Origin: an uncultured Bacteroidales bacterium
Lineage (GTDB): Bacteria > Bacteroidota > Bacteroidia > Bacteroidales > JAGOPY01
Direction of reading: 5' to 3'
Length of the DNA stretch: 64,000 bases
Assembly (NCBI GenBank): GCA_963823285.1
Contig: CAWGKX010000006.1
Location: 219,915 to 283,914, forward strand
Shown: positions 37,453-45,243 of the stretch, in pieces
Layout: each line of letters starts with the position of its first letter
Position numbering within the stretch: the first letter of the stretch is position 1
Notes under the pieces: generated by a model
Databases searched by the model: none
Told to the model about the DNA's origin: nothing
What the model saw: the letters and a program-made list of their open reading frames with translations, nothing else
Position numbers and translations under genes: made by a program

Positions 37453-38652
37453 ATGCTGCAAAGTTTAAAGCTTTATGCCGGATATTTCCTGAAAACCTCT
37501 TTCAGCACGGGGCGGAAGTTCGTTTTGATTGATATAAAGCGGTTTATATTGAAGAAAGACGTTTTCCGGCAGGATTTTACCTATGTGGAAGACGAGAAAA
37601 AAGAAGCCCTTTTAAAAGCTATAAACTGGCTGATGACGGCCCAGAAAATGAATAATGACGGCGGTATGGGCTCCTATCACCTTGTAAATCGTTGGTCAGC
37701 ATCTTACCCTGAAACCACGGGCTATATTATACCAACTCTCATACGGTATGGCAAAGCAAGCAACCGTCAGGAAGCATTGGATTCGGCTGTCCGTGCGGCG
37801 GATTTCCTGCTTTCAGTTCAAAGAAAAAGCGGAGGCTGGCAGGGCGGCAGGATCGGGGAAAACAGGCCGGAGATCGTTTTTAATACTGCCCAGGTGATCC
37901 GCGGAATGATCGCGGCACTTCAGCTCACGGGCGATAAGAAATATCTCGATGCTGCTGTCAGGGCAGGCCGCTGGCTTTCAGGGATCATTCATCCCGGAGG
38001 ATTCTGGCAAGTCCATGCCCTGATGGAGCAGGCAAGGGTTTATGACACATATGTCGATGTCCCGCTGCTTCAGTTATATGAATTGACAGGGGAGGAGCAA
38101 TTCAAAGATTCGGCCGTCCTCAACCTCGAATGGGTCGTGAATAAAAAGATGCAGCCAAACGGATGGTTCGAGGACTGCGACAATACGGTCATAAGAAATG
38201 ACAGGCCGATCCTTCACACTATTGCCTATACACTTGACGGCTTGGTCGACAGCGGCAATATTTTACGGGATGACCGTTATCCTGAAGCTGCGGCTATAGG
38301 CTCGTCCAGGCTTCGTGATCTCTTCCTGGGCCAGGGTTTTCTCAACGGCAGATATGACAGGCACTGGAGCGGGTCGGAATATTTCATCTGCACCGGTGGC
38401 GCACAGATGGCAATCATTTGGCTAAAACTTTATCAGAAGTACAATATTGAAGCTTACCTGGATGCCGCCAGGCAAATTATTAATCTCCTGGTACACATCC
38501 AGTCCAGAAATTTCGCGGAAAGAACGGATACCCTTGGCGCTATCCCGGGTTCTTTTCCCATCTGGGGCCGCTATGAGCCGTTTGCTTTTCCGAACTGGGC
38601 GACAAAATTTTTCTGTGATGCGTTAATGCTGGAGGAGGAGGTTTGCCGGTGA
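37453..38652 (+). CDS. Alpha/alpha-toroid protein (prenyltransferase / squalene-cyclase / LanC-like repeat fold)
   Basis: Repeated Gly/Trp motifs (NNDGGMGSY, RKSGGWQGG, PGGFWQ, QPNGWFED) are spaced about 50-60 aa apart. There is no signal peptide. Confidence 0.5.
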   Translation: MLQSLKLYAGYFLKTSFSTGRKFVLIDIKRFILKKDVFRQDFTYVEDEKKEALLKAINWLMTAQKMNNDGGMGSYHLVNRWSASYPETTGYIIPTLIRYGKASNRQEALDSAVRAADFLLSVQRKSGGWQGGRIGENRPEIVFNTAQVIRGMIAALQLTGDKKYLDAAVRAGRWLSGIIHPGGFWQVHALMEQARVYDTYVDVPLLQLYELTGEEQFKDSAVLNLEWVVNKKMQPNGWFEDCDNTVIRNDRPILHTIAYTLDGLVDSGNILRDDRYPEAAAIGSSRLRDLFLGQGFLNGRYDRHWSGSEYFICTGGAQMAIIWLKLYQKYNIEAYLDAARQIINLLVHIQSRNFAERTDTLGAIPGSFPIWGRYEPFAFPNWATKFFCDALMLEEEVCR

Positions 38653-40194
38653 ATCAAATCATTTCAAATATGAGCCATAAATCTGGCTGGAACGGGTAGT
38701 GCAGGCTGCACGGAAATATCCTGACCGAATTGCGCTGGAATTGCATGATGCGAAATATACTTACCGTGAGCTGACTAGAGGCCGCCGGATCAATTGCCAG
38801 GTCAATTCTTGAATTGAACGACAGCTGTTCGTTCGTGGCTGTTATGGCCGATAAGAGCTTTTCATGCTACGCCGGCATTCTCGGCATATTGATGGCCGGG
38901 AAAGGTTACCTTCCGCTTAATCCGCGTTTTCCTAACGCCAGGAACCTTTATATGATGGAGAAAGCCCATGTCGGGATTTTTATAGCCGGCGATATCCCTG
39001 ATGAAAATCTTGACCTTATGCTGGATAGCTATCCCGGAAGGATATTTGTCATTATTCCGAGGTGCGGCACTACTTCACATTCCAGCTGGGAAGTCATCTT
39101 CAACAATAACCCGGCCTACCTTCTCTTTACATCAGGGACTACGGGGAAACCAAAAGGAGTGCCTGTTTCCAGCCGGAATGCTTCCAGCTACCTGGATTTT
39201 ATGCTTAAGACATTACGATTTTCAGCCGGAAGACCGCTTCACTCAAAATTTTGACCTGACTTTCGATCTGAGTGTCCACGATATCTTCCTTGCCTGGTCA
39301 TCAGGCGCCTGCTTGTGTGTGCCGCAGGATAACTCGTCATTTGCCATGGCCGGCTTTCTAAGGGAAAAGCAACCTACCGTCTGGTTTTCGGTGCCATCTG
39401 TTGTTACCCTAATGGACCGGATGAGATTGCTTAAACCGGGGGCATTCCCTTCCGTCCGGCTTAGCTTTTTCTGCGGCGAGGCTCTGAATATCAAAACCGC
39501 CCGAGCCTGGAAAAACGCTGTTCCTCAATCCCGCATGGTCAATCTATATGGTCCAACGGAGGCGACAATAGCCGTTTCAGGGTATGAATTGCCGGATGAT
39601 CCGGTCAAATGGAAAAACGAGCTCGGCATCATTTCGATCGGGCGCATCTTTGATGGAAATTCATTTTTGATTAAGGAAGGGACCTCGCAGGTGGCCTCAC
39701 AGGTAGGTGAAGGTGAACTTTGTCTTACAGGGCAACAGGTGGTCGATGGATATTTCGAAAATGAAGAGGCTGATAAAATTGCATTCTTTACCGATCCCGG
39801 TACCCTGCTAAAATGTTATAAAACCGGCGACCTGGTGAAGATCGACAAGGAAGGTGACCTGTTTTTCCTGGGCAGGAAGGATGCTGAGGTAAAGATATCC
39901 GGGTACAGGGTCAACCTGAAGGAGATCGAAAATGTTCTTGCCGGATACGAACCGGTCGGACAGGTCGTTGTTATCTATGAGCTGAATGATGATAATGAAG
40001 GACTGATCCTGGCTTTCGTTCAAACAAAGCCGGACAGGACGGTTGAAATGGAGGAAATGTTTGAACATTGCCGCAGGTTGCTTCCCTGGTACATGGTTCC
40101 GGGAAAAATTATCTTTGTGAAGGAAATCCCTCTTAATCTGAACGGGAAAGTGGATATAGCGTCCTTAAAACGGAAATATTCAGATGGAAAGTGA
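38649..40194 (+). pseudogene. Stand-alone adenylation enzyme (DltA/amino-acid adenylation family) with three frameshifts
   Basis: The core motifs are intact: LLFTSGTTGKPKGV (A3), NLYGPTEAT (A5), YKTGDLV (A7), GRKDAEVKISGYRVNLKEIE (A8) and PLNLNGKVD (A10). The frame changes near 38683 (MSHKS|WLERVVQAARKYPDRIAL), 38777 (YTYRELT|EAAGSIARSIL) and 39210 (LDFMLK|HYDFQPEDRF). The GTG start overlaps the upstream stop (GTGA). Confidence 0.75.
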
Positions 40195-44005: not shown

Positions 44006-45243
44006 ACCTCCATATCAAGGAAAATATCCGAATCTCGATGGAATCGATCCGCACCCACTTATTGCGGACGATCCTCACGGTCACTATCATCGCCTTCGGG
44101 ATAATGGCGCTTGTCGGGATTCTTACTGCTATCGATTCGATCAAGTATTTCCTGAATGAGAATTTTACCATGATGGGTGCGAACACTTTTTCTATCCACA
44201 ATCACGCCATGATGGTGGATATGGGCGGCAGGCACAAGGACCCCAAGAGATACGCCAGGATCACTTACGACCAGGCTATAAGTTTTAAGAAGAAATTCGA
44301 TTTTCCCGCCTTTGTTTCGGTTTCGACATTCGCCACGCATACGGCGACTGTCAAATACAAGTCTGAAAAGACCAATCCGAACGTCGCCGTGATAGGTACA
44401 GACGAGAATTATCTCATTACGTCCGGGCAGGAAATAGGGCTGGGGAGGACCTTCAATGAAAACGAGGTATATTATGGTGCCCATGTAGTGATCCTGGGCG
44501 GTGCCATCAGGAATGATATTTTTAAAGCCAATGAAGACCCTATCGGGAAAATGATTTCCATCGGGCCGGGAAAATACCAGGTCATTGGCGTGCTGAAAGA
44601 AAAAGGATCAAGTATCGGATTTTCAGGCGACCGTATGTGCATGTTGCCCATAAGCAATGTTTTGCAATATTTTCCACGTCCAGACCGGTCATTTGGCATT
44701 GACGTGTGTCCTCAGGACCCGCTTCAGATGGATCAATGCATCGGTGAGGCCACCGGCCTTTTCAGGATCATAAGAGAAGACAAGGTAGGAGGGGAGCAGA
44801 CATTTGATATTGCCAAGAGCGATTCCCTGGCAGCCATGCTGACGGATAATATCAAATATGTCGCCCTGGCCGCCACTTTCATCGGGCTGATCACGCTCCT
44901 GGGAGCAGCGATCGGGCTGATGAACATCATGCTCGTTTCGGTGACCGAAAGGACCCTTGAAATCGGCATCCGCAAAGCGATGGGGGCGACTAAACAGACC
45001 ATCCGGAACCAGTTCCTGGTGGAGTCGGTCGTAATTGCGCAGATTGGCGGGTTTCTGGGTATTCTCTTCGGGATCTTGATCGGGAACGTACTTTCTATGA
45101 TCCTGAAAACTAAGTTTATCATCCCATGGCCGTGGATTGCTCTAGGTGTGACACTATGCTTTATCGTCGCCCTGATTTCAGGCATCATCCCGGCAAATAA
45201 AGCGGCAAAGCTGGATCCGATAGAATCTTTACGCTACGAATAA
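44002..45243 (+). CDS. ABC transporter permease, MacB/FtsX type
   Basis: 413 aa. An N-terminal TM is followed by a large periplasmic domain and then a C-terminal FtsX 3-TM bundle (ERTLEIGIRKAMGATKQTI...). Confidence 0.85.
   Translation: MNLHIKENIRISMESIRTHLLRTILTVTIIAFGIMALVGILTAIDSIKYFLNENFTMMGANTFSIHNHAMMVDMGGRHKDPKRYARITYDQAISFKKKFDFPAFVSVSTFATHTATVKYKSEKTNPNVAVIGTDENYLITSGQEIGLGRTFNENEVYYGAHVVILGGAIRNDIFKANEDPIGKMISIGPGKYQVIGVLKEKGSSIGFSGDRMCMLPISNVLQYFPRPDRSFGIDVCPQDPLQMDQCIGEATGLFRIIREDKVGGEQTFDIAKSDSLAAMLTDNIKYVALAATFIGLITLLGAAIGLMNIMLVSVTERTLEIGIRKAMGATKQTIRNQFLVESVVIAQIGGFLGILFGILIGNVLSMILKTKFIIPWPWIALGVTLCFIVALISGIIPANKAAKLDPIESLRYE

Follow-up and report, generated by a model that had tools for sequence, protein, structure and literature searches.

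A seven-gene operon found in an uncultured Bacteroidales bacterium joins relatives of the VimE and VimA proteins to a predicted glycine-carrier module. The operon lies in a 64,000-nucleotide (nt) stretch of DNA, the window (assembly GCA_963823285.1, contig CAWGKX010000006.1, positions 219,915 to 283,914), and all positions below are those of the window. Two units make up this single operon: unit A, genes 6 and 7, encodes a VimE-like deacetylase and a VimA/FemX-like transferase; unit B, genes 1 to 5, is optional and encodes a six-hairpin barrel protein, an adenylating ligase, a carrier protein, a GNAT-family enzyme and an AAC(3)-fold enzyme. The favored interpretation, to which a probability of about 0.5 is assigned, is that the Vim-type pair and the glycine-carrier module together make a doubly N-acylated or aminoacylated envelope sugar. 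An initial annotation of the letters had named the cassette as a whole its best candidate for an undescribed system and could not map it to a characterized pathway. This last point did not hold, since genes 6 and 7 are relatives of VimE and VimA, and genes 2 and 3 are AlmE/AlmF-like. What does appear new, as far as literature searches reach, is the five-gene module, its joining to a Vim-type pair and the absence of a known carrier-dependent transferase.

Organization and inheritance of the operon

Eight plus-strand open reading frames (ORFs) fill positions 37453-45243; genes 1 to 7 form the core operon, and a permease gene lies 3' of gene 7. Successive genes overlap by GTGA at 38649-38652 (genes 1 and 2), by 11 nt (gene 2 ends at 40194, gene 3 starts at 40184), by GTGA at 40922 (genes 4 and 5), by 20 nt (gene 5 ends at 41779, gene 6 starts at 41760), by GTGA at 43070 (genes 6 and 7) and by ATGA at 44002 (gene 7 and the permease). 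The eight ORFs and these overlaps are as initially annotated. Three of the chained genes are damaged in the window copy: the ligase and GNAT genes are broken and the carrier gene has lost its stop codon. The carrier/GNAT junction, which is ATGA or TAATG in relatives, is therefore not an intact overlap there.

In the protein collection, 2049 clusters are homologous to gene 7, and relatives of it occur in 438 species genomes. The 80 best loci, all from uncultured Bacteroidales, Lentimicrobiaceae or Bacteroidota metagenome-assembled genomes, were compared over 20 kb each (L numbers below); the locus table was made by tblastn of ten reference proteins against all related loci. The initial annotation had proposed co-conservation of gene order as a check, and it was found: in about 30 of the 80 loci, a minus-strand dnaX is followed by the seven genes in the order toroid, ligase, carrier, GNAT, AAC(3)-fold, VimE-like and VimA-like, an order kept down to 35-45% identity. 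In at least 14 others, dnaX(-) is followed at the same site by the VimE-VimA pair alone, with nothing between. In the remaining loci the pair occurs in another setting or its two genes are apart, but VimE-VimA adjacency is kept in most of the 80. Genes 1 to 5 are all present or all absent in uncut loci, never present singly, and the seven-gene and pair-only forms are spread over several separate clades of a neighbor-joining tree of gene 7. Unit A is thus independent of unit B, and unit B is inherited as an all-or-none block. The overlap of 17-20 nt between genes 5 and 6, where the two units meet, is present in the window, L085, L002 and L003.

A third arrangement is an eight-gene form. In 13 seven-gene loci (L011, L013, L014, L017, L019, L027, L032, L035, L038, L045, L048, L062 and L076), a second, paralogous VimE-like (DUF7033) gene lies between dnaX and the toroid gene, at about 2700-4370 of each locus (420-1550 in L045). 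Two clades make up the VimE-like proteins. One contains the upstream copies together with the lone deacetylase of some pair-only loci, and elsewhere members of this clade pair on their own with a VimA-like gene; the second contains the window copy and the lone deacetylase of other pair-only loci.

Unit A: a VimE-like deacetylase and a VimA/FemX-like transferase

Gene 6 (41760..43073, plus strand, 437 amino acids (aa), intact) encodes a VimE-like sugar N-deacetylase in which DUF7033 is joined to a CE4-related catalytic region. It matches Pfam PF23019 (DUF7033) at 96 bits and the NCBIfam model NF053580 (VimE, UDP-2,3-diacetamido-2,3-dideoxy-glucuronate deacetylase) at 137.7 bits over positions 91-423 of 431. 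All 30 relatives compared also match NF053580 (best E-value 1.3e-54) and none reaches its cut-off. Residues D174, D176, H276, H309 and H408 are invariant in the family. Pfam PF01522 was undetected in gene 6, and a search of PDB sequences with the family profile gave no match. The "CE4-like" deacetylase of the initial annotation thus gains a more specific affiliation. On sequence comparison, the gene 6 family can be placed as a sister family of VimE with two paralogous clades; whether genes 6 and 7 are orthologues or paralogues of the characterized Porphyromonas gingivalis VimE and VimA is judged through the NCBIfam model alone.

Gene 7 (43070..44005, plus strand, 311 aa, intact) is a VimA/FemX-like tandem-GNAT aminoacyl transferase. 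Its FemAB-like fold, predicted from the letters, was recovered by structure modeling. The AlphaFold2 model, built from 59 homologues (pLDDT 92, pTM 0.88), shows a tandem GNAT fold, and Foldseek matches it to Sbb17, Sba18, FemX, FemA and MprF with E-values of 5e-13 to 1e-8, TM-scores up to 0.71 and probability 1.0, at only ~12-15% sequence identity to the best of them. The 29 best matches are all aminoacyl-tRNA-dependent or MprF/DUF2156-type, bar one Bacteroides protein of unknown function. A PDB search with the gene 7 family profile gave no match; a few homologues carry PF13480 or PF02388, and one of 19 matches TIGR03019, at 1.4e-5. The RFYKSFG motif of gene 7 does not differ between seven-gene and pair-only loci, nor does its net charge, about +12. 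The motif, likened by sequence and not by superposition, resembles FemX Lys305 and the Phe328-Lys329 motif of DhpH (PMC12945691).

The precedent for such a pair comes from the secretion system of type IX (T9SS), whose linking sugar, on which its sortase places cargo, is 2-N-seryl-3-N-acetylglucuronamide in P. gingivalis and 2-N-glycyl-3-N-acetylmannuronic acid in Tannerella forsythia (Veith et al. 2020, PMC7468200). VimE is proposed to strip the 2-N-acetyl group, and VimA, which matches the FemAB-type family TIGR03019, decides the amino acid installed, serine or glycine; the T. forsythia VimA installs glycine (PMC7468200). The chemistry has a direct precedent in Orf11/Sba18-type enzymes, which use Gly-tRNA to glycylate an amino-sugar amine (PMC12945691). 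Since at least 14 genomes have the VimE/VimA pair by itself at this locus, gene 7 would not need the carrier, and from the modeled fold its donor is most likely aminoacyl-tRNA. Taken together, the analysis leads to the conclusion that unit A would carry out deacetylation and then tRNA-dependent N-aminoacylation of an amino sugar, independently of the carrier.

Unit B: a candidate glycine-carrier module

Gene 2 (38649..40194, plus strand) encodes a stand-alone AlmE/DltA-like adenylating ligase, broken in the window and 514 aa once repaired. It contains AMP-binding and AMP-binding_C domains (Pfam) and matches the amino-acid adenylation model TIGR01733. Extraction of the specificity pocket after frame repair, proposed initially, gave the code DLHFFCLIAK, which is shared by 27 of 32 relatives; the code was derived by alignment to a GrsA segment whose numbering gave the canonical positions. 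Among PDB entries, the pocket region matches 4oxi best (112 bits); the code of that entry, DLHLFCLIAK, is the same at 9 of 10 positions, the differing residue being bulkier in gene 2. The entry is deposited as "enterobactin synthetase component F-related protein". From that name, the annotation of VC1579, we take it to be AlmE of Vibrio cholerae (VC1579), solved with glycyl-AMP. Glycine is accordingly matched by the pocket and is the predicted substrate of gene 2. D-alanine, which a DltA-like FCGE motif might suggest, was considered and rejected, the pocket being much closer to that of AlmE; its agreement with the B. subtilis DltA code is 5 of 10 positions. AlmE loads glycine on the carrier AlmF, from which AlmG transfers it to lipid A (PMC4278540, PMC12930378). 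The initial premise that DltA/DltC-type pairs normally feed Dlt or nonribosomal peptide synthetase (NRPS) partners thus has a known exception.

Gene 3 (40184..40537, plus strand) encodes the carrier protein, about 84 aa in relatives; in the window the frame runs through a lost stop codon. Its profile matches acyl carrier protein, PltL peptidyl carrier protein and DltC structures, and PF00550 is found in its relatives, which are annotated as acyl carrier proteins. The putative phosphopantetheine-site residue, Ser41 (LLNS41L), is invariant in the motif SGLL(D/N)S(M/L)xFV across 28 sequences; a candidate for the modifiable serine that the initial annotation required is present. A carrier profile search for fusions with a GNAT or a ligase found none: all 120 listed matches are stand-alone proteins of 82-93 aa. 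The read-through from carrier into GNAT in the window is due to one extra base and is not a natural fusion.

Two acyltransferase folds follow. Gene 4 (40436..40925, plus strand; the listed ORF piece is 40464-40925) is a GNAT-family N-acyltransferase of about 160 aa in relatives, recognized by Pfam Acetyltransf_1 at 51 bits; weak Sat4 and AAC(6') matches were seen in cassette scans, and a profile search of the PDB gave generic GNAT matches only. Gene 5 (40922..41779, plus strand, 285 aa, intact) is an N-acyltransferase of the AAC(3)/YokD/FrbF fold, with PF02522 (Antibiotic_NAT) at 85.1 bits against a cut-off of 25 and otherwise generic profile matches beyond weak ones to AAC(3), YokD and FrbF structures. 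It scores 42.7 bits on the AAC(3) equivalog model NF033082, below the cut-off of 270. His157 and Glu160 (HxxE) are invariant, as is H105-S106-F107 in the RxxHPLHSF motif (27 sequences). The L001 orthologue carries at 8300-8450 of its locus a short repetitive insertion (GREEFRTVGREDDRTVRREDDRTVGRE) that is missing from the window and most relatives.

Gene 1 (37453..38652, plus strand, 399 aa) encodes a six-hairpin (alpha/alpha)6 barrel protein. The AlphaFold2 model (pLDDT 94.8) confirmed the alpha/alpha toroid but not the LanC- or prenyltransferase-like nature first attributed to it: both identities were rejected, the closest solved structures being GH88 unsaturated glucuronyl hydrolases and AGE-family glucose, cellobiose and N-acetylglucosamine 2-epimerases (Foldseek TM-scores 0.62-0.69, ~14% identity). 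Weak Pfam matches are to GH127, SQHop_cyclase_C, GH88, pectate lyase and C5-epimerase, and a profile search of PDB sequences gave generic matches only. The N-terminus is not hydrophobic. From the model, gene 1 is presumed to be a cytoplasmic sugar-active enzyme of the epimerase/isomerase or hydrolase type.

No signal peptide was found on genes 1, 5, 6 or 7. The fold calls of the initial annotation for the ligase, carrier, GNAT, AAC(3)-fold protein and permease were upheld by Pfam, NCBIfam and profile matches, and MBOAT/DltB, DltD and condensation domains are, as it had stated, absent from every window ORF scanned. An AlmG-type (LpxL-like) lipid A acyltransferase was likewise found neither in the cassette nor in the window ORFs scanned. 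Literature searches on DUF7033 and on adenylation/carrier-based N-acetylglycyl O-antigen decoration returned nothing relevant and no account of the five-gene module. Unit B is inherited all or none and has an AlmE-like pocket; genes 1 to 5 are best read as N-aminoacylating an envelope sugar from the carrier, and to that extent the carrier-dependent (amino)acylation of an envelope glycan proposed at the outset survives, as an inferred function.

Frameshifts in the window copy

Five 1-nt indels were located within 38681-40500 by comparison with the intact relatives L085, L001 and L005. The ligase carries three (~38681, ~38777 and ~39210), so that its frames run 3, 2, 3, 1 relative to the intact genes, which encode 512 aa in L001 and 502 aa in L085. 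An extra base near 40433 destroys the carrier stop codon (against L085, L005 and L001), and the ORF continues to 40537. Another extra base, near 40500, shifts the GNAT frame in a DNA alignment with the three relatives: against L085, residues 1-21 are in frame 2 and residues 24-159 in frame 3. As written in this assembly, unit B would be inactive, if the indels are not assembly errors.

The strongest alternative to the favored interpretation builds on these breaks, namely that the cassette is a decaying relic in this genome, with ligase, carrier and GNAT as pseudogenes and only genes 1 and 5 to 7 functional. Its chance is appreciable, although well short of even. L085, whose proteins are 81-86% identical to those of the window and whose synteny spans the M16 peptidase to DUF4271, gives the measure: the 1.8 kb of ligase, carrier and GNAT contain five indels and the other ~19 kb of syntenic flanks contain two, a density about 25 times higher, as a decaying block would show. 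What the breaks spared points the other way. Of the 78 ligase residues invariant in 31 relatives none is lost after repair, and the specificity code is complete; the repaired GNAT keeps 11 of 12 invariant residues and falls within the range of intact relatives, and there are no nonsense substitutions or larger deletions in the broken genes. Because the invariant residues and the code are kept after repair, the breaks are either assembly errors or very recent. Single frameshifts also split other window genes, which suggests an error-prone assembly. The two flank breaks against L085 are in the M16 peptidase near 33100 (32505-33149/33094-35358) and in the heme-binding ChaN-like gene near 48800 (48443-48853/48786-49313). 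Two further splits are suspected from ORF layout only, in a PMT_2 (ArnT-like) glycosyltransferase (30410-30982/31156-31728) and in a Laminin_G_3/Por_Secre_tail T9SS cargo protein (3317-3982/3879-6434).

Exact look-ups of the window VimE-like and toroid proteins matched no contig. A 100%-identical gene 7 was found only on one 4.4-kb Logan contig, which begins ~10 nt 3' of the GNAT indel and hence is no independent check on the frameshifts.

A model for the pathway and its alternatives

In the favored interpretation, the VimE-like gene 6 product would N-deacetylate an amino sugar that is nucleotide-activated or lipid-linked, and gene 7 would attach an amino acid, most likely from aminoacyl-tRNA, to the amine thus exposed. 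In parallel, the AlmE-like gene 2 product would adenylate glycine and load it on the phosphopantetheine arm of the carrier. Either the AAC(3)-fold enzyme or the GNAT would then move the glycyl group from the carrier to a second amine, either on the same diamino sugar or on the amino acid installed first (its alpha-amine); the remaining acyltransferase would acetylate the leftover amine. The six-hairpin gene 1 enzyme may remodel the sugar, for example by epimerization. The pathway is predicted to end in an envelope-glycan sugar that is doubly N-acylated or aminoacylated. Glycyl-S-pantetheine being an amino-substituted acetyl thioester, one acetyl-CoA-type enzyme would have been adapted for glycyl transfer. 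The second deacetylase of the eight-gene form fits a diamino sugar from which two N-acetyl groups are removed and on which two amines are re-acylated. In this scheme we infer the glycine substrate, the carrier-using transferase, the acceptor and the link to T9SS anchoring. A more specific version, in which two orthogonal donors act on one sugar, a tRNA-dependent gene 7 and a carrier-dependent glycyl transfer by an N-acetyltransferase fold (AAC(3) or GNAT) with glycyl-S-phosphopantetheine in place of the usual acetyl-CoA, and in which the product is a new, doubly aminoacylated T9SS linking sugar of a large group of uncultured Bacteroidales, is put forward tentatively and is rather doubtful.

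Several points weigh against this model. All of the proteins are known here from sequence and models. Gene 6 scores 137.7 bits where the VimE equivalog cut-off is 440, and gene 7 has no significant sequence-family match of its own (Pfam and NCBIfam, none at E<=0.01), so the sugar substrate may differ from UDP-GlcNAc3NAcA. Similarity of fold does not establish that gene 7 takes its amino acid from tRNA. As candidates for the glycyl transferase, the GNAT and the AAC(3)-fold enzyme are indistinguishable, and either could be a plain acetyl-CoA enzyme. The glycine prediction leans on the presumed identity of 4oxi as AlmE. The 64-kb window contains no wbp genes (wbpA/B/E/D) and no vimF-like glycosyltransferase, and the synteny with a T9SS plug gene may be incidental. 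Finally, the pair-only genomes could encode a ligase and carrier outside the 20 kb covered.

After the relic, two explanations that divide the work differently have to be weighed, and both are improbable. In one, aminoacyl-carrier replaces aminoacyl-tRNA as the donor of gene 7; the ligase and carrier feed gene 7, while the GNAT and AAC(3)-fold enzymes only acetylate. The initial annotation had named the FemAB-like enzyme among its plausible acceptor-side enzymes. All seven genes share one orientation and are coupled in translation, the donor of VimA is not established in PMC7468200 or in other literature examined, and the amino acid installed by the T. forsythia VimA is glycine, the one predicted for gene 2. 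These points are outweighed by the VimE/VimA pair occurring without the module in P. gingivalis-type operons and, at this very locus, in at least 14 genomes, by the identity of the RFYKSFG motif and the ~+12 charge in gene 7 of both locus types, and by the 29 tRNA-dependent or MprF/DUF2156-type structural matches with their one Bacteroides exception.

In the other, units A and B are functionally unrelated, and the module, placed in a permissive site between dnaX and the Vim-type genes, glycylates or acylates something else, be it a small molecule, a different glycan or, as AlmEFG does, lipid A. A module inserted whole or not at all at a single intergenic site, a unit A that works without it and an AlmE/AlmF precedent that acts on lipid A would all be expected from such an arrangement. 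It is no likelier than the first, given the 17-20 nt overlap that couples gene 5 to gene 6 in the window, L085, L002 and L003, a gene order fixed down to 35-45% identity, the second VimE-like paralogue that joins the module in 13 loci and the lack of any AlmG-type membrane acyltransferase. A small antibiotic cluster, conferring aminoglycoside or streptothricin resistance or making an aminoglycoside-like metabolite exported by the FtsX permease, is highly improbable, for although PF02522, the weak Sat4 and AAC(6') matches and a best gene 7 structural match from streptothricin-type biosynthesis hint at it, the AAC(3) equivalog score is 42.7 against 270 bits, the locus is chromosomal, vertically inherited and fixed beside dnaX in many Bacteroidales, no sugar-building or aminocyclitol genes are present, and the permease is separable from the cassette.

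Comparison with known systems

The Wbp/Vim systems of P. gingivalis and T. forsythia share with the window adjacent deacetylase and FemAB-like genes, near-full-length VimE homology, the tandem-GNAT fold, cytoplasmic enzymes and a Bacteroidota host with T9SS genes nearby. They differ in that gene 6 here is below 440 bits and gene 7 is unrecognized by TIGR03019 or Pfam at significance, in that vimF and wbp genes are not adjacent, and in the five-gene carrier module upstream, which is unreported for the P. gingivalis and T. forsythia operons. AlmEFG of V. cholerae resembles unit B in its stand-alone ligase with 9 of 10 pocket residues, its small dedicated carrier, its lack of DltB, DltD and condensation domain and, on the predicted function of unit B, its delivery of an amino acid to an envelope glycolipid. 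The candidate transferases here are a soluble GNAT and an AAC(3)-fold enzyme instead, the predicted bond is an amide to an amino sugar where AlmG makes an ester on a lipid A acyl chain, and the host phylum and operon partners differ.

The likeness to Dlt (DltABCD) is more distant. Gene 2, which has the FCGE Cys, reaches 186 bits against PRK04813, and the carrier shows the LLDSM serine motif as DltC does; however, the DltA models give 184-186 bits against cut-offs of 476-560, DltC gives 16.4 against 68, and there is neither an MBOAT DltB nor a DltD. NRPS systems differ by the condensation domain, absent from the scanned ORFs. FemX/Sba18-type enzymes are the best structural matches of gene 7 and form amides on a sugar or peptide amine, but share only ~12-15% identity with it and act in antibiotic or peptidoglycan pathways, whereas the predicted context of gene 7 is an envelope glycan. 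AAC(3), YokD and FrbF share PF02522 and the HxxE pair with gene 5, which is far below the resistance cut-offs, lies in a putative glycan-modification operon beside a carrier and may use a donor other than acetyl-CoA.

Permease, promoter region and genomic context

The MacB_PCD+FtsX permease gene (44002..45243, plus strand, 413 aa, Pfam) is followed by a convergent T9SS plug protein gene (45308..46654, minus strand; PF17116, 140.8 bits, Pfam). The permease and a T9SS plug gene follow the operon in most related loci. The permease had been counted as the closing member of the cassette, but it is split from gene 7 by two unrelated genes in L001 and by upp in L003; being separable, it is treated as a conserved neighbor and not as part of the core. 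In L051, L053, L057, L061, L064, L071 and L074 (~15900-18900), ~6 kb separates the VimA-like gene from the VimE-like one; the latter nevertheless directly adjoins an FtsX/MacB-type permease gene, which hints that their association may be more than chance. A further T9SS gene in the window is the Por_Secre_tail cargo gene at 3317-3982.

The operon is separated from dnaX by a 238-nt divergent spacer. A possible Bacteroidota-type -7 promoter element, TATCTTTG (37413..37420, plus strand), was identified by the pattern TAnnTTTG, which occurs once in 37215-37452, and sits 33 nt 5' of the gene 1 start codon. A sigma-70 promoter and terminator scan did no better than shuffles, and an Rfam scan of the spacer and leader found no riboswitch, for glycine or otherwise, and no other Rfam family. 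The spacer is AT-rich except for a GC-rich segment of imperfect inverted symmetry at 37325-37395 (ccgccgcatccccgcc...gggcaggcgcg), which has no Rfam match.

Two other clusters, both on the minus strand, occupy the window. A polysaccharide utilization locus at 6434-24711 encodes SusC/SusD, an alpha-amylase, GH130, a major facilitator superfamily transporter and a hybrid two-component regulator, as well as two large proteins without Pfam matches (8019-10544 and 16496-18217). An acetate-handling cluster at 53995-59512 encodes an acetyl-CoA synthetase, a GPR1/FUN34/YaaH acetate channel and an 893-aa fusion with the architecture of a Pat-type protein acetyltransferase, in which CoA-binding, succinyl-CoA-ligase-like and ATP-grasp domains are joined to a C-terminal GNAT.

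Significance for envelope glycan modification

Anchoring of T9SS cargo relies on amino-acid-bearing linking sugars. These differ between genera (seryl, glycyl, alanyl), some of their routes are unknown and several pathways are probable (PMC11969387). The locus described here is a widespread candidate for a variant route, and the pair-only, seven-gene and eight-gene genomes are a natural comparison set. If the proposed pathway is true, AlmEF-type carrier-dependent glycylation would be extended beyond Vibrio lipid A, and if the transferase assignment is true, an acetyltransferase fold would have been put to a new use, moving aminoacyl groups off a carrier protein. Should the module simply acetylate and glycylate a capsule sugar, it would be a modest addition to the enzymology of glycan decoration.

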